Positions 3,084 to 40,621 of a stretch of 40,621 nucleotides of DNA are shown here, one piece after another. A program made the position numbers and the translations under genes. Below the pieces are notes generated by a model that ran no database searches, was not told where the DNA came from, and saw nothing but the letters and a program-made list of their open reading frames with translations. Origin of the DNA: a phage; sequence record PX596819.2; one strand, given 5' to 3'. The first letter of the stretch is position 1. The number at the start of each line of letters is the position of its first letter.

Positions 3084-3143
3084 AGTTGCCCTCCCGGTTT
3101 ATCAGATTTTCACGTAGAGTCTCCTCCACTAGTTAGTGTTAAC

Positions 3144-3185
3144 CATAAAGGCCACTACACATAGTAATGACCTTGAGTCTAACAC
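3144..3185 (-). other. Conserved hairpin motif (copy 1 of 3), candidate RNase III processing site (R18.5-like position)
   Basis: Motif cat(a/g)aaggccac-N13-15-atgaccttgagtcta recurs three times; the transcript folds as an ~11 bp stem (AAGGUCAU.. / ..GUGGCCUU) with a 5 nt loop. Confidence 0.4.
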
Positions 3186-3449
3186 TTATTGAACTCCATA
3201 CCCTGTGTCATTATCTTCCGTAGCGGAGAGCACCTTATCGTACTCTGCGTTCAGGGCCTCCATATCAGCCAGCGTCTTCTCGTCCACAGACACCTTACTT
3301 AACACAAAGTTGTGACGAGCCAGTAGCTTCTCAATGGCGTTGTAAAGCTGAGGCGAACGCTTAGAGTCATCCCGCAGGTCTTGCAGCATGAGTCTAGCAC
3401 GTTCAGTATCTAGCATTAAGAGGAACTTCTCTAAGTCCATCTGCGTCAT
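3186..3449 (-). CDS. gp18: Terminase small subunit (DNA maturase A, gp18)
   Basis: 87 aa; size and position as T7 gp18 between the holin and Rz genes. Confidence 0.75.
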   Translation of the reverse strand: MTQMDLEKFLLMLDTERARLMLQDLRDDSKRSPQLYNAIEKLLARHNFVLSKVSVDEKTLADMEALNAEYDKVLSATEDNDTGYGVQ

Positions 3450-24728: not shown

Positions 24729-26744
24729 ATGCACCCATGCCATGTACGCGAAGTCTCCTTCCCAGCCGTGTACATACCCGGCCTCTTCGAGCATACGTTC
24801 AGTCTCAACAATCCAGTGCTTACAGACTACCGCACCATCACCTTGAAGTAAGGCGTTCAGTGCTGAGTGTGGAGACCGGATGTGAATGCGGCGACCGTCA
24901 AGTCCACGCAGCCAACGGCGTTTCCACTTAACGATGTTCTCTCCGTCAACCCACTTAGAGTCTGAGATTAACGTACTACTCACAGCTTCCCTGAGGTCCT
25001 TGATGGCTGGTGTACCCTCAATGAATTTCTTCATGAGAGCTGAACCTTCCTTCTTACCACCTCCTACTATCAGTCCAATCTTAGCGGCCCCTGCGCCATA
25101 CAGGAACGCATAGATGAACGTCTTAGCGTTGTTACGGAAAGCATCATGGTCGTGGTTAGACTTATCGCGTGGGACGTTAGGTGCTAACCCAGCGTTGACT
25201 GCGTTGGCCCAGTGGATGTCACCTTCGACCACAGTCTTCGCATAGTCACCACCATCAAACGGAGCCGCTCTGTTCCCCAGACAACGAAGCTCAAGACCTG
25301 AGGCATCCACACCTACTTGAATCCAAGGGTCTGGATTACCGTCCTTCTTGTTCCATGCTGCACCGAAAGCACCACGGCAAGTCTCACCATATGGAGCACC
25401 GTTAGCAGGGACCTGAGCCATGTTTGGTGAACTATGAGTAGCACGTCCGGTTACTGCCCCGCATGGGTTGATTGAACCATGCATACGTCCGTCTGGACCT
25501 ACAAGTTTCAACCATGCGTTCTTACCTTCAGCCGCCTGACCAATGCGCTTCTGGACTACCAGATACTCACGGACCAGCTCTACGCAAGCCTGAGCCTCTG
25601 CGTCTGGTAACTTAACGTGTTCTAACGTCTCGTCATCGACTACAGGTTTCCCGGTGTCAGTGAAGTCCACAGGCTCCCAACCACGCTCCATCAGAACTTT
25701 CGCTAAGTGGTCTCCGCTTCCCGGATTAAACTCAACGTAAGTGATAGGTGTGAACGGTGCTCCCTCCATCGTGTCTCGTGAGTCGAACTCACAAGGTTCC
25801 AGACCTAAGCGTTGAGCTTTGTTCTTCGGCTTCTTGAATACTGACCCGACCTTAGGATACACGACTCGCGGATACTTCGGAAGGTCCTTGCCTGTCCGTG
25901 GGTGCTTGAAGAACTCCTTGCCACCCTTCGGTGCATACCAGCTACCGAAAGTCGAACGCAGCTTGTCCAGCAGCTCTGCACGTTTGACGGTGAGTTCACG
26001 ATATAAGCCTTCGACCATCTCGGTGTTCATCGGGTAGCCGTTACGTTCCATCTTCGCACAGGTCCACGCAGCATCATGTTCCAGACGCAACGCATAAATC
26101 TGGTCGAAGGCGAACTGTTCAGACTGGAAGTAATACTTGTCAGTCAGGAACTTCTTGAACAACGCCAGTGTGACCACAACGTCTTGAACGTTATAGTCCA
26201 GCATCTCCTGAGACGGTAACAACCATTCGTCCCCAGCCTTATATTCGATACCTTCAGCCTTGCACTTGGCAACGTAATCGTGTTTGTATTCACCTTTCAT
26301 CTCACCAAGACGATAGCCCCAAGCCTCAAGAGACTGACGTCCCATCATCTTAGGTGGCAGACGACCAGCTTTCACCGCGCCCATGTCTGAGAACTTAATG
26401 TTTGGATACATCAAGCGCCCCAGCACCAAGGTATCAATCATCTTGTGTTTCGGGAAGTTAAAACGTTTCCCAAAGTACAGACGTTTCAGCTTGTCAATAG
26501 CAGGGACGTCATAGTTTATACCATTATGGAAGACAAGCATACCATCAGGTGATGCGGCAATCTCTTCCACTTTATGCACATACTCTTTGAAGCCACCGAC
26601 GATACCGACCATCGGAGCTACCCCATACTTAATGGTCTCATTCGACTCGGCGTTAATCAGGACCCCGCAGTGGAACTGGGAGACTGTATCAAGGAGACCG
26701 TTTGTCTCGATGTCAGAACACCAGATACTCTTAAGGTCAAACAT
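24729..26744 (-). CDS. gp5: DNA polymerase (family A, T7 gp5-like), 5' exon
   Basis: Strong resemblance to T7 DNAP throughout (DIETNGLL, FHCGV, MDYNVQDVVVT, KNKAQR, GRATHSSPNMAQVP, DASGLELRC, FAYMAWVH). Start placed at the internal ATG with GGAGGA 6 nt upstream (MFDLKSIW); the track ORF begins earlier at 26780. Confidence 0.93.
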
Positions 26745-26765
26745 GGTTAATCCTCCGTTTAGTCT

Positions 26766-26806
26766 AATCATAAAGGCCACTCGATGTGAATGACCTTGAG
26801 TCTAGA
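26766..26806 (-). other. Conserved hairpin motif (copy 2 of 3), candidate RNase III site (R4.7-like position)
   Basis: Same motif as at 3144 and 34998; lies between genes 4 and 5. Confidence 0.4.
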
Positions 26807-26807
26807 C

Positions 26808-26936
26808 CTAGAAGTCTGTACGCAAGAAGTGGTACATGAACTTACGGTTAGCCTTCTTCCATGCCTTAGAATCGAACCTATGGTCTCCCAGAATGTTGGA
26901 CAGGCAGGTTGCCTCATCGCTCCACCATTTGTACAT
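26808..26936 (-). CDS. Possible small ORF (about 42 aa) between primase-helicase and DNA polymerase
   Basis: ATG-initiated ORF MYKWWSDEATCLSNILGDHRF.. filling the intergenic gap; no clear RBS. Weak. Confidence 0.2.
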   Translation of the reverse strand: MYKWWSDEATCLSNILGDHRFDSKAWKKANRKFMYHFLRTDF

Positions 26937-33536: not shown

Positions 33537-34515
33537 TTGGTGTCTCCTCCATGTAGGTAATCTGGCAGGCCCAGCCTTTATAATAATCAGGGTCTGACTT
33601 TACGTTCTCTGTGAACTCGGACATTAGGGCGCGACTAATATTAGTTGCGGAGACCTCCATCCCGTTCTCAAGCATAACGTCAAAGCCTATTACCAGTCCT
33701 TCGTTGGTAAGACCTTCTGTTCCCCATATAGGCCGTACAACGTGACCGTCTGCCTCTTCGCTTGGTTTCATCTTGAACATACCTGACTTCTTTCCACGCT
33801 TCCAGCGTCCCAGTGGGTCTTTAACCACCAGACCCTCATGGCCCTCTTCTCTCTTCTTCTCATACAAGTCAGTAAGCTCGTCTAAGCTAAACACTGTATG
33901 ACTCTCAGATAATACCCAGTCGATTTCCGGGAAGTATTTCTGGAGGAGAGGGACGATAGCTTCGGCCTTCAGGCGCGTGACGCTATGGATAGGACCTTCA
34001 GCTTTCTGGTCGAGGATGACGTTGAGGTCTATGATACCGTAGACGATTACCTTGATATGTTCCGGCTTAAGGTTGAACAGCTCCTTGCGGGACTTGCGGT
34101 CTGTTGGCGTCCCACCCACTGCGAACTCGTGGTTCTTGTGGTCTCGGTACTTCGTGCGGATAAGACCTGAGGATGTGTTGAAGTCTACACCCTTGACCAT
34201 CACCTCGCCATCAATCATCAGGCCAGAGACCTCGTGTCCTGCTTGCTTCAGGAACCAGCGCCAGTCATCTGCTCGTGTTACTACACCTTCGTGCTGACGT
34301 GAGGCTGGGTTGCTTAAGTGACTCAATGCTGGAAGCTCTTTAGACTCACGGCTCAACCATTGAGTCTCACCAGTAGGGAAGACCGGAATATTCAACCGGA
34401 CACCATCGTACTTCACTTCAGCTTCCAGCGACCCAGCAGCTTCCAAAGCCTTCTTAACGCCAGACTCAGAGTAATCTACAGCGCGGTGCGGGTTAGTTTT
34501 GATAGTCGTTGTCAT
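33466..34515 (-). CDS. gp1.3: ATP-dependent DNA ligase (gp1.3)
   Basis: 349 aa; IKTNP start, adenylation motif VKYDGVR, GHEGLVVKDP, GWACQITYMEETP, all resembling T7 ligase. Confidence 0.93.
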   Translation of the reverse strand: MTTTIKTNPHRAVDYSESGVKKALEAAGSLEAEVKYDGVRLNIPVFPTGETQWLSRESKELPALSHLSNPASRQHEGVVTRADDWRWFLKQAGHEVSGLMIDGEVMVKGVDFNTSSGLIRTKYRDHKNHEFAVGGTPTDRKSRKELFNLKPEHIKVIVYGIIDLNVILDQKAEGPIHSVTRLKAEAIVPLLQKYFPEIDWVLSESHTVFSLDELTDLYEKKREEGHEGLVVKDPLGRWKRGKKSGMFKMKPSEEADGHVVRPIWGTEGLTNEGLVIGFDVMLENGMEVSATNISRALMSEFTENVKSDPDYYKGWACQITYMEETPSGLLRHPSFDQWRGTEDDPTVKI

Positions 34516-34777
34516 TATGATTTCTCCATGTGTCTAGTTGGTCAGCGAGACCGTTAAGGAAGTCGGTTGCAGTGTTGTACAGTACGTCTTCATCGTGGTG
34601 TGCGAATGTCTCAAGCGCGAAGATGTTACCAGCTCGGTCCTCAACCCTGAGTTTCATGCACTCTTGTCGAGACGCAGGGTCTTGAAACTCCTGAGAAATG
34701 ACAGCTAAGTCTAACTGATAGAGCCTGTTACACGCTGCTTTGAGAGCGTTGAGGTTGCCACTATAAAGTCGGCCCAT
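34493..34777 (-). CDS. gp1.2: gp1.2-like protein (dGTPase inhibitor homolog)
   Basis: Starts MGRLYSGNLNALKAACNRLYQLDLAVI and contains HHDEDVLYN, closely resembling T7 gp1.2. Confidence 0.75.
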   Translation of the reverse strand: MGRLYSGNLNALKAACNRLYQLDLAVISQEFQDPASRQECMKLRVEDRAGNIFALETFAHHDEDVLYNTATDFLNGLADQLDTWRNHNDNDYQN

Positions 34778-34781
34778 AGCG

Positions 34782-35009
34782 TTATGCTCCTACTAAGTAT
34801 TTTTCTCGGTTTACCAGAGAGTCTTTACCTTCAGCGTTACGGAAAGCACCCTTGACACCACCGCCGCGCTTGGTCTTGTTCAGCTTGCGGCCCTTCGGAA
34901 TGTAATATTCAGTCTTCTGACGTTCACGGATGCGCTCGAAGTTGATAGTGTTCTGATACATGTGGTTAAATCTCCAGTAGTTTACGTTAGGATTAATCAT
35001 GAAGGCCAC
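34782..35009 (-). CDS. gp1.1: gp1.1-like small basic protein
   Basis: Contains KGRKLNKTKR as in T7 gp1.1; the track ORF starts at GTG and the true start is probably an internal ATG. Confidence 0.5.
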   Translation of the reverse strand: MAFMINPNVNYWRFNHMYQNTINFERIRERQKTEYYIPKGRKLNKTKRGGGVKGAFRNAEGKDSLVNREKYLVGA

Positions 35010-35035
35010 GACTTTGAGTCATGACCTTGAGTCTA
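34998..35035 (-). other. Conserved hairpin motif (copy 3 of 3) at the 5' end of the phi1.1 transcript, candidate RNase III site (R1.1-like)
   Basis: Minus strand UAGACUCAAGGUCAUGACUCAAAGUCGUGGCCUUCAUG: 11 bp stem with two G-U pairs and a 5 nt loop, immediately downstream of the promoter. Confidence 0.45.
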
Positions 35036-35055
35036 ATCCTATAGTGATAGTTTAG
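35033..35055 (-). promoter_or_regulatory. Phage RNAP promoter (phi1.1-like)
   Basis: Minus strand CCCTAAACTATCACTATAGGATTAGACTC; first phage promoter downstream of gene 1, as in T7. Confidence 0.65.
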
Positions 35056-35131
35056 GGTTAACCTCTTCTGCGTTGGACTAAAATGAATACTGCGAGTGTT
35101 CCCAGCCACAAGGCCAGCAACTGTAGGTCTG

Positions 35132-35362
35132 TCATTTGGTTGCCTCTTCCCGTAGGGCCTTCTCGTGTGACCACTGTATTACCTGAATCAGCTCCTTCTG
35201 GCTGATACATTTGGCCTTAGCCGTTCCAGTCGGTACCATAGTCACCTTGACCAGACCTTTACCCGCCACTGTGGTTACGGTAACTACCTTGTTGCCACCA
35301 GATACGTTTGATACACGGTGTGCGAATTGCATGTTGTCTCTCCTGTTGTTAAGCGAATGCAA
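35132..35362 (-). CDS. Hypothetical small protein between gene 1 and the phi1.1 promoter (gene 1.05-like position)
   Basis: 76 aa ORF with TTG start overlapping the RNAP stop by 14 nt; an internal ATG (MQFAHRV..) is also possible. Weak. Confidence 0.3.
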   Translation of the reverse strand: MHSLNNRRDNMQFAHRVSNVSGGNKVVTVTTVAGKGLVKVTMVPTGTAKAKCISQKELIQVIQWSHEKALREEATK

Positions 35363-38030
35363 AGTCTGAAGACAAGATGTCTTCGATATTCAGTTTACCT
35401 TTCTTCGGAAGCTCAGGCAACTTGTCGCGCTGGCTCTCGTGAAGCTGGTACTCGAACTGCTCGTAGAAGTCGAGCAGCACATCGTTGTCGCGGTAGGTCT
35501 CGACCATCGTCTCACGGACACCACGGAACAGATACTCAGCATCAGCAGGAATGGTCCCGAAGCTATCGTGAATAACTGCGAATGACATCACACCATACTT
35601 GCGGTGAGTGTGGACTACAGTCTTGCGGAGGTGGCTGCCATCTTGTGAGTGAACGAAGTTCGGGCTAATGCCTGACTCCTGCTTGTGCTTGTCCAGCTCT
35701 TTCTTCGTGCCTTTATTGACTGTAGGTTGAAGGTTAAATGACCCTAAGAACATCAGGTTCAGACGCGTGGTATCCTTCTTGCGGTATTCCTGCCAGACCG
35801 GGAAACCATCAGGTGTTACCCAGTGTACCGGAAGGCAAGGCTTCAGGATTTCACCAGTTTTCTTGTCCTTCACCTCAGCAGCCAGCAGCTTGGCAGCACC
35901 TTGAAGCCACTTCATCGCGTCTACCGCAGCAACCACGGTCACACTCACAGCCTCCCAGATCATCTTAGCCATGAAGCGAGACGCTTGTCTTGGTTCAGTG
36001 AACATAGCGCCAGACCCTGAGTCAATCGCGGGCATCACGATGTCCTCGTACACTTGGTCTGCGAAGCCATACTCTTTCGACCCGTAGGCCAGAGTCATGA
36101 CCGAACGCTTAGTGACCTTGCGTGACATGCCGTAGGTCAGCCACTGACGGGCCAGCTCTCGTGTCCCCAGCTTGAGACGTTCGGTAATCTCACCAGTTTT
36201 CTTGTCCTCGTGAGTCACCATCTCGTTGTCCGTACCGTTAACCAGCAGGACTTTAAGCTCCTCCTCAATGCGGTCAGACACAATGCGGTAGATGTCTTGG
36301 ACCTTACCGGATGGAGTTAGGTTTACTGCATGTCCACCGATGTGGTCACGAAGCATCGCGCTGAAGTGCTGAATACCAGAGCAGGACCCGTCGAACGCTA
36401 TTGGCAGCGAACATGAGTAAGACAGTCCGTGGTGCATTACGCCAGCATACTCGAAGCAGAACGCTAGGAAGCAGAACGGAGAGTCTAACTTGCCCCACCA
36501 CTCAATGCTATCCATCGGTGCTTTGGCAGCAGCCATGATGTTGTCGTGGTTGTCTTCCACCCACTTGATGCGCTCCTCGAAGGTGACTTTATCGACACCC
36601 GCACAGTTTGCACCGTGGACCTTCAGCCATTTGAAACCATCAGCACCAATAGGCTTACCGACTGCCAGAGTCAGTAGACCCTTCTGCATGTCGTTACCCT
36701 GAGGGTTGAACATCGGCACAGCGTAGACGCGACCGCGCCAGTCCATGTTGTACGGGAACCAGATGGCCTTGAACTGAGAGAACTTGTTCGCTTGGTTGAC
36801 GATAAAGCTCAATGATAATCTGCGTGACTGTCTGGCCTTCTCGCGGCGATAGATGCCAGCAGCAGCCTTCTTCCACGCCTTGAGGTCCTCTTCAGTCTCT
36901 CCCACATAGTCTTCAGGCTTCAGTGGTTCCATCTGAGGGATGTCGTCAATAGGCGTGTTGTTCAGCTTCTCGACCATGTTCACTACGTCCAGCACCTTCT
37001 TGTTCACTTTCCAAGGTGTATTCTGGATGATGTTCACAGCGTCATAGACTTCAGGCATGTACACGTCTTCGTAACGTGCTACCGCAGACTTAGACCCTAA
37101 GCGAATCAATGGTAACGGTCTGCGACCTTTGGCCCAGTAACCACCGCCTACGACACCCGTCCACGGCTTAGGTGGAACGACGCACGGTTGGTAGACTGGC
37201 GCGATACCTGCAAGGCTGAAGCCACGTTGCGCCATCTTCTTGACCCAGAAGTCTGACAGGTGGACCATCTCAACATCAGCCGCTGCATTGCCAGCACCAT
37301 AACGCTTAAGCTCGACCAGTTGTGTAGACTGTATGACAATCTCAAGCATCTTGATGCCGACGTGTACCGCTTCTGTAGGACTCCAAGTACCCCACGCATC
37401 TTCCAGTTGGCCTTGCTCCAGCATGGAGGTCTCAACCGCTTGCATGTAGGCTTTCTTGTAGGATACCCCTGCTCGCTTGTTCAGGTTCTCAGCAATCGCC
37501 TTCTTGAAGTGCTCCTGCTCCTTATCACGGATGCGGCCGAAGCGGATTTCATCTTCCAGTGTGCGACCTATCGCGGATGCCATAGGAGTTATCGGAATGC
37601 CTTCAGGCTTGACCAGCTTGCTGAGGATGACTTTCAGTATGATGATCGCAGCAGACTCCGCAGAGATTAGCAGAGAGCGGTCTTTTACAGCCTTCTCGTC
37701 AGTGCTCAGCATGGTAAACGCTACGCTTGGACGCGAGGTCGATGACTTACCGTCCGGGCCTTCATGCCACTCACGGAAAGCCTTAGCGATGGTCGGAACC
37801 AGCGTTTGCATCAAAGGTTTGGCGACCTGATTGTCTGCCAGTTCCCCTCGCTCGGTCTGGCGCTCAAGGTTCTTGATGAAACGTCGCTCGCCTTCAGTGT
37901 ATGCCTCATGCTCAAGCTGAAGCTGTTTGACTGCAAGGTCTTGCCCGTAGTGGTTGGCCAGCAGGTTAAACGGCTCAATGGCGTTCGACACATCAGAGAA
38001 GTCGTGTTTGTCAATAGAGATGACGCTCAT
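35349..38030 (-). CDS. gp1: Single-subunit DNA-directed RNA polymerase (T7 gp1-like)
   Basis: 893 aa vs 883 in T7; ends ..DFAFA like T7 RNAP; AAGGA 8 nt upstream of the ATG. Confidence 0.97.
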   Translation of the reverse strand: MSVISIDKHDFSDVSNAIEPFNLLANHYGQDLAVKQLQLEHEAYTEGERRFIKNLERQTERGELADNQVAKPLMQTLVPTIAKAFREWHEGPDGKSSTSRPSVAFTMLSTDEKAVKDRSLLISAESAAIIILKVILSKLVKPEGIPITPMASAIGRTLEDEIRFGRIRDKEQEHFKKAIAENLNKRAGVSYKKAYMQAVETSMLEQGQLEDAWGTWSPTEAVHVGIKMLEIVIQSTQLVELKRYGAGNAAADVEMVHLSDFWVKKMAQRGFSLAGIAPVYQPCVVPPKPWTGVVGGGYWAKGRRPLPLIRLGSKSAVARYEDVYMPEVYDAVNIIQNTPWKVNKKVLDVVNMVEKLNNTPIDDIPQMEPLKPEDYVGETEEDLKAWKKAAAGIYRREKARQSRRLSLSFIVNQANKFSQFKAIWFPYNMDWRGRVYAVPMFNPQGNDMQKGLLTLAVGKPIGADGFKWLKVHGANCAGVDKVTFEERIKWVEDNHDNIMAAAKAPMDSIEWWGKLDSPFCFLAFCFEYAGVMHHGLSYSCSLPIAFDGSCSGIQHFSAMLRDHIGGHAVNLTPSGKVQDIYRIVSDRIEEELKVLLVNGTDNEMVTHEDKKTGEITERLKLGTRELARQWLTYGMSRKVTKRSVMTLAYGSKEYGFADQVYEDIVMPAIDSGSGAMFTEPRQASRFMAKMIWEAVSVTVVAAVDAMKWLQGAAKLLAAEVKDKKTGEILKPCLPVHWVTPDGFPVWQEYRKKDTTRLNLMFLGSFNLQPTVNKGTKKELDKHKQESGISPNFVHSQDGSHLRKTVVHTHRKYGVMSFAVIHDSFGTIPADAEYLFRGVRETMVETYRDNDVLLDFYEQFEYQLHESQRDKLPELPKKGKLNIEDILSSDFAFA

Positions 38031-38099
38031 ACTTAAAGTCCTTGTTATTAGTCTTTCACTTAAAGTCTCTTTGTTCTTTCACTTGGAGTCTTAGACCTT

Positions 38100-38122
38100 G
38101 AGTCCTATAGTGATAGTTAAGT
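38100..38122 (-). promoter_or_regulatory. Phage-RNAP-type promoter directly upstream of the RNAP gene
   Basis: Minus strand CTTAACTATCACTATAGGACTCAAGGTC, a full match to the consensus core, placed between the last early ORF and gene 1 and oriented into gene 1. Confidence 0.55.
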
Positions 38123-38127
38123 CAGAA

Positions 38128-38520
38128 TTACTTGCATATCAGCTGGTTAGCGTGGAGATGACTGAAGTCACCGTGAGTCGTGTGCTTGATGGTTGACCGT
38201 TGGTCTATCGCCTTCCAGCCTGAGACCAGAAGTTTACCATCGTCGGTGATTGGTCGTCCACCATACGCCAGACACATCTGCTCGGACTTATGGCCCTCGG
38301 CCAGGAGTCGTGCTTGCAGAACCCGGTCGCGCTCCTGCTGTTGACGTGCGGTATGTGACGAGTGGCGATGAACATAAGCGGTCTTGTTCCCTGTCTTCTC
38401 CCAGTAGTTGCGACCGCGAGGGTCCGTGCCGACGTACTTCCACTCTACGCCGTTCTTATCAGTGAATGTGTGAAGCGATGTGATTGAGTCCATTGCATGT
38501 ACCAGATTTGCCATATTCAT
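38128..38520 (-). CDS. Hypothetical early protein (130 aa), His-rich, immediately upstream of RNAP
   Basis: Start overlaps the upstream ORF stop (TAATG); no motif I recognise. Confidence 0.5.
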   Translation of the reverse strand: MNMANLVHAMDSITSLHTFTDKNGVEWKYVGTDPRGRNYWEKTGNKTAYVHRHSSHTARQQQERDRVLQARLLAEGHKSEQMCLAYGGRPITDDGKLLVSGWKAIDQRSTIKHTTHGDFSHLHANQLICK

Positions 38521-38723
38521 TACAGTTTACTCCCAAGAGTTGCTATATCCCAGACGTTCGCTAAGTTGCGCATGAATCGTCCGTTAGGTTGACGCACAGT
38601 CCAGCGACCCAGACGTACATAGTTGAATTTGTAGACTTTACGCGCTTTGTGGATGTCTTTCACCAGCACGTAGGCGATAAGTCCATAGCCTATGGCTATC
38701 AATAGTGCAAGACTCATAGTCAT
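38520..38723 (-). CDS. Small early membrane protein (67 aa, N-terminal TM then basic tail)
   Basis: MTMSLALLIAIGYGLIAYVLV then KDIHKARKVYKF..; ATG overlaps the upstream mini-ORF stop (ATGA). The track shows a 106-aa TTG-initiated extension that I consider less likely. Confidence 0.45.
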   Translation of the reverse strand: MTMSLALLIAIGYGLIAYVLVKDIHKARKVYKFNYVRLGRWTVRQPNGRFMRNLANVWDIATLGSKL

Positions 38724-38824
38724 AAACCCCAGAACAGTTGAGTAAGGACAGGAAGTTTGCCGACTAGAGTAAACATTCCCCACGCTACGAAGCCTGAGAT
38801 AGTCCAGATGATTGCAGTGTTCAT
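38720..38824 (-). CDS. Mini-ORF encoding a 34-aa hydrophobic peptide (MNTAIIWTISGFVAWGMFTLVGKLPVLTQLFWGL)
   Basis: GGAG 7 nt upstream of the ATG; stop overlaps the next start; single TM-like segment. Below the ORF-track size cut-off. Confidence 0.35.
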   Translation of the reverse strand: MNTAIIWTISGFVAWGMFTLVGKLPVLTQLFWGL

Positions 38825-38899
38825 AGTTAACTCCTATCAATGCAAGTGGTAATCTTTGAGGCCACCTGTCAGTTAGATGACCTCTCGTCTATCACTCTC

Positions 38900-39271
38900 C
38901 TACACTTCTACCGCGACGGTTGTCATCTTGGTTACAGTAAGTCCACCAGCCAGCTCAACTGCATAGCGTATCGCCTCGTCTTTGGACCTGAAATCTTTAC
39001 CAGCAAGGTGGTAAATGTCGCCGTTTATTACTTTGGCTGGCTTGCGGCTAACTGCTATAGCGTTGCTAAGGGAAAGCTCACCCTTCGACCACTGAGAGTG
39101 CCAGCGGCATACGCTCTTAGGAGATACGTTGAAGTCACTGGCCACCTTCGCAAGCATAGAGTCAAGTCTAGAAGAGCTACATTGAGGCTGGCGCACCAAG
39201 TCGTATGCCTTTGCTACTCGTATTTTAAAATCTACCGTGTAGCTGTTGCGGCTTTTAGTAGTTGTGTTCAT
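38900..39271 (-). CDS. Early helix-turn-helix DNA-binding protein (IS3-type transposase HTH-like N-terminus)
   Basis: YTVDFKIRVAKAYDL...LAKVASDFNVSPKSVCRWHSQW matches the pattern I associate with HTH_Tnp_1-type domains; no transposase catalytic ORF follows. Confidence 0.45.
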   Translation of the reverse strand: MNTTTKSRNSYTVDFKIRVAKAYDLVRQPQCSSSRLDSMLAKVASDFNVSPKSVCRWHSQWSKGELSLSNAIAVSRKPAKVINGDIYHLAGKDFRSKDEAIRYAVELAGGLTVTKMTTVAVEV

Positions 39272-39344
39272 GAGTGTATCCTTTGTTAATTAATTAAATA
39301 AGTGACAATCAGTCAGGCCACCAGCATTGATGACCTGTAGTCTA

Positions 39345-39494
39345 TCACTTAGCGTGCAAACTGTCGTGTATGCGCTTGCGGCCATCATAGACCGCTTTCA
39401 GGTGACGCATAGCGGCATCATGGTTTAATTGCCCGTTCTTGACCATAATCCGGGCGTTGGTTACGTGGTGTTGACAGAGACCATAAGTTACCAT
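39345..39494 (-). CDS. Possible small basic ORF (about 49 aa) coupled to the end of the kinase-like gene
   Basis: ATG lies 2 codons before the upstream stop with GAGGTGAGG upstream; fills an otherwise empty 216 nt gap. Weak. Confidence 0.25.
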   Translation of the reverse strand: MVTYGLCQHHVTNARIMVKNGQLNHDAAMRHLKAVYDGRKRIHDSLHAK

Positions 39495-40012
39495 CTTGAT
39501 GACCTCACCTCTTGCAGCTTGGAAACAAGGAAGAAGCAGTCCACCAGTATCAGCTTACCATTAATAGCCCGTACATTTCGTGGGCTTATCTCAAATTGAA
39601 TGTCTGACCCGAAGTTAGCGCAAGCATCCAGCGCCATCAGCACATCCATCAGACCTTCCCGCACAGTCTCAGTATCAGACCTGTCGTGTGCAGCTTGGAA
39701 TATCTCGTACCACCTGTGATACAGTTCAGCAGGTCTAGAGAATACAGGAGACCGTGAGAAGCAATCCCGCAGCACCTGATAGAGTTGCCACTGGTCATCA
39801 TCTAAATGCGCTTTGAGACCTCGTGTTGGTGGTATGTAGTCCATCTCATACGTGCCTACCTCAATCATCTTGACTTCAGGGAACAGTGGAGACTCAGGGA
39901 ACCATCCCCACGCCATACACTCCTTTATCGGGTCAGAAGAGACCAGAAGAACACGCTTCCCGCAATCCTTCAGGTAGCACTTAGTGAACGCGCCTTTGCC
40001 TATCAGTTTCAT
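39488..40012 (-). CDS. First early gene: gp0.7-like protein kinase domain protein (174 aa), lacking a shutoff-domain extension
   Basis: Gly-rich loop KLIGKGAFTKCY, then FGSDIQFEISPRNVRAINGKLILVDCFF, resembling the T7 gp0.7 kinase-domain segments LGNGHFSAAY and [25 protein letters not shown] as I recall them; AGGA 8 nt upstream of the ATG. Confidence 0.4.
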   Translation of the reverse strand: MKLIGKGAFTKCYLKDCGKRVLLVSSDPIKECMAWGWFPESPLFPEVKMIEVGTYEMDYIPPTRGLKAHLDDDQWQLYQVLRDCFSRSPVFSRPAELYHRWYEIFQAAHDRSDTETVREGLMDVLMALDACANFGSDIQFEISPRNVRAINGKLILVDCFFLVSKLQEVRSSRW

Positions 40013-40209
40013 GTTGTTTATCCTATAGTTAGTGACTATCAGTCAGGGCCTTCAGATGTAGACTCAAAGACCCTGTAGTTAATCACTATCGCTAGCAAGC
40101 TAGCTATCGGCGCACATTAAGAGTTTATCCAGATTGTTAAAGAGCACTCCCTTCAGTCAGAGGACTTCAGGTAGACCATTTCAGTGTTGGTCATCACCAT
40201 TGTTTCGAT

Positions 40210-40246
40210 GTGGTGCATACTACTTTAAGTCGGTACATCTTGTCAA
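40210..40246 (-). promoter_or_regulatory. Candidate host sigma70 early promoter (TTGACA-18 nt-TAGTAT)
   Basis: Minus strand TTGACAAGATGTACCGACTTAAAGTAGTAT about 200 nt upstream of the first early gene; perfect -35, good -10. Confidence 0.4.
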
Positions 40247-40497
40247 CTGCTTTCTGTCATCTGCCTGTTGTTCGTATGACTTATCAGGCTGTCTACTTAA
40301 CCGTGATGACCCGGCGTCTTCACTATCCGGTTGTTGCCGTGTCGTGTTGACGGAAGCTATTAGGCCATAGTCTAGACCTATAGTCAATAGGTAATTTGAA
40401 TTAATATCAATTAAGCTATCGTCGGCCCCATAGTGACTAAGAGGATATAGTCTTTGACTAAGATGTCTTCGACCTTAAGTCTATAGCTTTGTGTTTA

Positions 40498-40592
40498 TTA
40501 ACTGTAGGTCCTTGACTGTAGGCTGTGAGTGTCTTATGGTTGTGACTGTAGGTTAGTGAGACTGTAGGTTAGTGAGACTGTAGGTGTAGGAC
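40498..40592. repeat. Short direct repeats near the genome left end, including gactgtaggttagtga present about 2.5 times in tandem
   Basis: gactgtagg occurs five or more times in about 95 nt; analogous to the CCTAAAG-type repeats at the T7 left end. Confidence 0.5.
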
Positions 40593-40621
40593 GTAATGTT
40601 ATACTATATCACTATACAGAT

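Follow-up and report, generated by a model that had tools for sequence, protein, structure and literature searches.

Repeated hairpins in the early region of a K1F-like phage, very probably T7-type RNase III processing sites

The repeated motifs in the early intergenic regions of the phage genome PX596819.2 are very probably mRNA processing hairpins of the T7 type, at which RNase III would be expected to cut by analogy with T7. The element belongs to a long-known textbook family, expected in any T7-like phage, and holds no new biology in itself. The hairpins, their homology to the T7 sites, their restriction to the transcribed strand, the covariation between their arms and their placement between cistrons are directly established. 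The original prediction favored palindromic operators for a dimeric regulator and offered RNA processing hairpins as the alternative; it is this alternative that is backed by the folds, the T7 homology, the covariation and the strand restriction.

The window (the whole 40,621-nt stretch analyzed) represents all or nearly all of the genome of a K1F-like (Kayfunavirus) phage of the T7 group, with its genes on the minus strand, and its closest DNA matches are Kayfunavirus coliphages (e.g. YZ1, Penshu1 and GA2A) at ∼90-92% identity. A single-subunit RNA polymerase of 893 aa is encoded on the minus strand at 35349-38030. Eleven phage promoters (consensus AAACTATCACTATAGGA) are present in the whole window, all on the minus strand, the first in gene order being that at 38103-38119, and the promoter scan found no phage promoter in 38120-40621. 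Because the first phage promoter lies at this position, the interval 38865-40095 belongs to the early region transcribed by the host polymerase only. A sigma-70-type promoter (Table 1) is the likely point at which the host polymerase begins the early transcript containing sites A-C.

The first early gene (minus strand, 39488-40012) encodes a 174-aa protein of unknown function (phrog_11084) and fills the slot used in other relatives by SAM hydrolase or Ocr; its product may be a different anti-restriction or anti-defence protein. An assignment of this protein as a kinase, made by eye from a GxGxF motif, was dropped, as there is no Pfam match, no PDB relative and no similarity to T7 gp0.7. Near the left end of the genome, the plus strand at 40499-40584 carries five copies of (T/A)(G/A)ACTGTAGG (CCTACAGT on the gene strand) with a spacing of 14-30 nt. 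T7 has short repeat arrays beside its terminal repeat. Comparison of both window ends found no duplicated terminal repeat.

All of the sequences quoted in the original prediction are present on the minus strand. GTGATAGACTACAGGTC lies at 39332-39348 (the full 20-mer at 39329-39348), and the position first given for this copy, 39338-39364, was ∼10-15 nt too far right. GTGATAGACGAGAGGTC and GTGATTAACTACAGGGTC lie at 38879-38895 and 40069-40086, respectively, and GGCCTGACTGATTGTCAC and GCCCTGACTGATAGTCAC at 39302-39319 and 40032-40049. Both motifs are far more frequent than expected by chance, with four matches to the first at three or fewer mismatches (0.12 expected) and two matches to the second (0.06 expected), counts that were reached in 0/100 shuffles in either case. 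A plus-strand match to the first motif at 25632-25648 was taken as chance, being on the wrong strand and scored by neither of the two covariance models described below.

The two motif classes are thus real, but had been listed as separate, although they are the 5' and 3' arms of one hairpin. GTGATAGAC..AGGTC forms the 5' arm and GGCCTGACTGATTGTCAC the 3' arm of an irregular ∼60-nt hairpin in the minus-strand early transcript. The third locus (site C), which had been listed without a partner, pairs with GGCCUCAAAGAUUACCACU, and the genome holds three further copies of this hairpin element elsewhere.

Folding of the minus-strand RNA, proposed as a check at the outset, gives one irregular hairpin at each of the three loci, at -24 to -27 kcal/mol and with z-scores of -2.7 to -3.7 against shuffled sequence. 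In each hairpin, a lower stem of 9 bp and an upper stem of 9-10 bp are separated by an asymmetric internal loop with 4 nt in the 5' strand and 5 nt in the 3' strand. Site A folds at -24.5 to -27.2 kcal/mol (z -3.3) and site B at -24.1 kcal/mol (z -3.7), while site C folds at -26 kcal/mol (z -2.7) over 38825-38915 and at -18.6 kcal/mol over the site interval alone. The UGA stop codon of the 49-aa ORF (39347-39345) falls inside the lower stem of site B, in the conserved sequence AGUGAUAG, so that a ribosome terminating there would be positioned on this stem; in T7 R0.5 the stop codon of gene 0.4 (T7 1431-1433) is placed likewise. A permissive Rfam scan of 34000-40621 returned three sub-threshold matches only, all at chance level (E 1.5-8). 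No family covering the T7 RNase III sites was matched in this interval, and Rfam thus seems to offer no curated threshold against which to score the hairpins.

For comparison, the regions around the five early RNase III sites of the T7 genome were folded, and all five share the architecture of the window hairpins and differ little from them in sequence. Sites A-C align column by column with T7 R0.3, R0.5, R1, R1.1 and R1.3 (consensus AGUGnUAGACUCAAGGUCAU..GUGGCCUUnAUGAUUAnCACU). The six window hairpins and the five early sites of T7 align collinearly in MAFFT, and from this alignment RNAalifold gives a two-stem structure of 9 + 9 pairs, with compensatory changes in 11/18 pairs. The likeness of single sites is close; T7 R0.5, for example, reads GAGUGAUAGACUCAAGGUC...GUGGCCUUUAUGAUUAUCACUU and site B AAGUGAUAGACUACAGGUC...GUGGCCUGACUGAUUGUCACUU.

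To avoid circularity, a covariance model was built from eight T7 sites only, and the whole window was scanned with filters off. Exactly six sites in the 40.6-kb window are recovered by this T7-only model, and every one lies on the minus strand. Their scores range from 32.9 to 55.6 bits (E 4e-5 to 1e-10), with sites A and C lowest at 33-35 bits; below them comes a match of 14.6 bits, which is antisense to a genuine site. A mixed model recovers T7 R4.7, R6.5 and R18.5 (the last at T7 36812-36873), all of which lie outside its training set.

Table 1. Coordinates of the hairpin sites and the host-type promoter in the window, and of the long site A homologues in related early regions (positions of the named loci). 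Bits and E values are from the T7-only covariance model.
Feature	Coordinates	Strand	Detection	Location
Sigma-70-type promoter, TTGACA-18-TAGTAT	40217-40246	minus	consensus scan, 10/12 matches	
Site A	40024-40093	minus	34.6 bits, E 1.5e-5	leader of first early gene (174 aa, ATG 40012)
Site B	39294-39355	minus	54.1 bits, E 3e-10	between 49-aa ORF and 123-aa ORF (ATG 39271)
Site C	38838-38902	minus	32.9 bits, E 4e-5	begins at stop codon of 123-aa ORF (38902-38900), upstream of 34-aa ORF (ATG 38824)
Site D	34982-35046	minus	50.2 bits	just downstream of RNA polymerase gene; begins at transcription start of phage promoter 35037-35053
Site E	26753-26815	minus	48.3 bits	between primase/helicase gene and DNA polymerase gene
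Site F	3128-3192	minus	55.6 bits	between small terminase gene and Rz-like spanin gene
Long site A homologue, L008	830-922			
Long site A homologue, L012	747-839			
Long site A homologue, L013	615-707			
Long site A homologue, L014	164-256			
Long site A homologue, L017	629-720			
Long site A homologue, L018	411-503			
Long site A homologue, L019	617-709			

The positions of the sites also correspond to those in T7, the early ones sharing with the T7 early sites an intercistronic place in the host-transcribed early RNA. Site A has the position of R0.3 and site B that of R0.5. In T3 and T7, R0.3 lies between promoter A3 and gene 0.3 (PMC3276506), and site A is placed in the same way between the host promoter and the first early gene. 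Site D repeats the T7 phi1.1A/R1.1 arrangement, in which the site follows a phage promoter immediately beyond the polymerase gene. The T7 late sites R4.7, R6.5 and R18.5 are of one family with sites E and F, and the position of site F, between the small terminase and spanin genes, is exactly that of R18.5. T7 R6.5 has a phage promoter in its loop, whereas no window site is built in this way, and the promoter of site D lies immediately upstream instead. T7 reportedly has ten RNase III sites, compared with the six found by the model in this genome.

One T7 position is without a counterpart. T7 has R1 directly upstream of its RNA polymerase gene, while the window has a phage promoter there instead (38103-38119, minus strand), and the annotated T7 record has no phage promoter at the matching position. 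This promoter is a perfect TAACTATCACTATAGGA, directly upstream of the phage RNA polymerase gene, and is kept in most K1F-like relatives; it would let the phage polymerase transcribe its own gene. A fourth early site at the R1 position was considered and rejected: the leader after the promoter has GACUCAAGGUC and no fold (z 0.18), and it is scored by neither the mixed nor the T7-only model.

A motif-like copy at 38190-38214, in the 130-aa ORF, was likewise rejected as a structured element, since substitutions in relatives break its pairs without compensation. This copy sits in an irregular hairpin at 38188-38241 (minus strand; -23.2 kcal/mol, z -3.7), the 3' arm of which resembles the 5'-arm motif of the RNase III-type sites. 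The end of the 130-aa ORF has an unusually high DNA identity in relatives, ∼95% throughout.

There are also differences in detail between the window sites and those of T7. In the 3' strand of the internal loop, UGACU (sites A and B) or UCAAA (site C) replaces the usual UUUAU of T7, and the reactivity of sites A-C could therefore differ from that of the T7 sites. The window upper stem closes with C-G or G-C, not A-U, as in T7 R1, and the upper stem and loop of site A are longer than those of the T7 early sites. Other RNAs that are matured or controlled through host RNase III, including the lambda N leader, lambda sib and the stems of the 30S rRNA precursor, are double-helical over about two helical turns; these lambda and cellular substrates are commonly cut on both strands, and have no sequence relation to the T7 family.

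Conservation in related phages, also among the checks first proposed, was assessed in 18 early regions of K1F-like phages (loci L002 and L004-L020). Sites are present in 18/18 of these regions, and the T7-only model gives 52 matches, every one of them on the gene strand. In the alignment of the relatives' copies, 94.7% of pair cells are paired, a value favored by the fitting of the pair-counting alignment to the model structure, and the upper helix is 100% paired. When the partner columns are slid by 1-3 positions as a control, pairing falls to 26-52%. Double changes occur in 11/18 pairs (130 cells). For example, the pairing GGUCAUC/GGUGGCC of site B in the window becomes GGCCCUU/AGGGGCC in the orthologue of phage pO2, and compensatory changes are also present in the site C orthologues. 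G-U pairs are frequent, and the sense fold is more stable than the antisense fold in 47/52 of the relatives' copies; in the window this holds for 6/6 sites, and reflects the G-U pairs. Together, the covariation, the use of G-U pairs and the strand bias identify an RNA element on the transcribed strand, not a symmetric DNA site.

Site A homologues reach 92-93 nt in several relatives (Table 1), where ∼25 nt of extra insert in the loop region looks like a second small hairpin. In the related GenBank records inspected the sites are unannotated, and the features beneath them are given as 'none' or 'hypothetical protein'. No description of RNase III sites in K1F-like phages was found in the searchable literature, the K1F genome paper lying outside it.

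The operator reading, in which dyad sites would be bound by a dimeric regulator, perhaps the putative HTH protein of 123 aa encoded next to them, that would control the early units, fits these data poorly and is extremely unlikely. It draws on the placement of copies upstream of early genes, on a weak HTH_23 match in the 123-aa protein (E 0.0024) and on the palindrome TGAT-A-GAC..GTCATCA, which one copy indeed has. The palindrome is weaker in the second copy and missing from the third, however, and the dyad TGATnGACn5GTCATCA is found in 0/52 homologous copies. Its would-be dyad bases, of which the ATC(A) half varies among copies, covary with the distant 3' arm, its right half belongs to the upper stem, and the many G-U pairs make the pairing much stronger on the transcribed strand. 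A set of operators for early units also accords poorly with copies that all lie on one strand and occur between late genes as well, and the only sigma-70-like promoter on this strand, at 40246-40217, is upstream of site A, with none beside sites B or C. The proposed regulator does not follow the sites: of the 18 related early regions, all of which carry them, just 5 have a homologue of the 123-aa gene, and T7 has the same element but no protein of the 123-aa type. The HTH match itself is under the Pfam cut-off (18.1 vs 24.6 bits), and the 123-aa protein has no relative among PDB structures.

In the preferred scheme, the host RNA polymerase transcribes the minus-strand early region from ∼40210 downward into one polycistronic RNA, in which the irregular hairpins fold between the cistrons. 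By homology to T7, host RNase III would then cut each hairpin once, in the 3' strand of its internal loop. Cleavage is predicted within CCUGACU|GAU after U40041 (site A) and U39311 (site B), and within CCUCAAA|GAU after A38855 (site C). Each upstream mRNA would keep a protective 3' hairpin, and each downstream mRNA would gain a 28-39-nt leader carrying its ribosome-binding site. From the predicted cut to the next ATG (40012, 39271 and 38824) there are 28, 39 and 30 nt at sites A, B and C, respectively, close to the 27-35 nt of T7. The T7 cuts, reportedly at 890, 1468, 3138, 5887 and 6448 (Dunn & Studier 1983), share a single alignment column, which is the fifth base following GGCC in the 3' strand of the internal loop; this convergence supports both the reported coordinates and the homology.

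Several features of this scheme are documented for T7. The T7 early precursor of ∼7000 nt carries five RNase III signals, and its processing is needed for optimal protein production (PMC3867540). Single-strand cleavage in T7 RNA leaves stabilizing 3' hairpins, which shield the upstream RNA from 3' exonucleases (PMC1540722, PMC3867540). Internal loops confine RNase III to one phosphodiester, and a helix-length requirement for RNase III substrates is also described (PMC1540722). On this basis we infer RNase III cleavage, the exact bond cut, and effects on mRNA stability and translation in this phage.

The hairpins might instead be structured elements that are not cleaved by RNase III, serving as 3'-end stabilizers, as pause or termination signals for the host polymerase, or as sites for binding only. 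Stable and conserved folds would be expected in this case too, the internal-loop sequence of sites A-C is unlike that of T7, and R1.1 variants that bind RNase III yet resist cleavage are known (PMC1540722). Nevertheless, sites B and C share their upper stem (ACAGGUCAUC/GGUGGCCUGA) exactly with T7 R1, one of the five T7 early processing signals (PMC3867540), and the window sites have the overall geometry of T7 R1.1, down to the spacing between predicted cut and loop. In addition, the intrinsic terminator scan called none at the site coordinates, where there is no terminator-like stem and U-run. Hairpins without cleavage are therefore very unlikely, and RNase III processing remains the preferred explanation of sites A-C.

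The sites also coincide with differences in gene content. The nearest relative, YZ1, lacks exactly 453 nt, corresponding to 38896-39348 of the window (minus strand; compared with L015 1435-1499), a unit that runs from within site B, whose 3' part it includes, through the 123-aa gene and into site C, of which it takes in the 5' part. In YZ1 the junction falls in AGUGAUA(G/A)AC, the 5' lower-stem arm common to sites B and C, and the difference looks like the product of recombination between two RNase III sites. Among 19 early regions, compared over the window interval 38031-40621, the sites make up 6.8% of the sequence but hold 25% of the unique internal HSP ends, a ∼3.7-fold enrichment of homology breakpoints that is confounded by non-independent endpoints (the sequences being related) and by the intergenic location of the sites, as all intergenic DNA may be enriched. 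Gene content between the sites varies widely among relatives and includes SAM hydrolase, Ocr, protein kinase and genes of unknown function, and the sites thus mark cassette boundaries and, on the evidence of YZ1, apparently acted as a substrate for recombination at least once. It is quite possible, and is proposed here tentatively, that the sites also serve as portable homology 'linkers', through which recombination adds, removes and swaps early-gene cassettes, each with its own leader and 3' hairpin.

Taken to its extreme, this behavior could mean that the repeats persist chiefly because they act as recombination linkers or form a small mobile element, the RNA fold being incidental. That the cassette missing in YZ1 is delimited by 5' arms which sites B and C have in common, and that breakpoints are enriched at the sites, would both fit, with the confounding noted above. 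The compensatory changes and G-U pairs, however, show selection on the RNA fold itself, and the sites are strongly homologous to functional T7 sites. Moreover, the repeats could recombine and still be processed by RNase III, so that recombination does not exclude processing. The chance that the fold is incidental is close to nil, and a role in RNase III processing is preferred, with the cassette-boundary behavior as the sole mildly new point.

The importance of the sites is mostly for annotation, as they fix the likely ends of the early mRNAs. They explain conserved intergenic blocks without invoking a regulator, and they warn against calling small ORFs across them. For phage engineering, the sites represent natural cassette boundaries in K1F-like phages, and the cassettes that they bound offer a modest point on how mosaic early regions arise.
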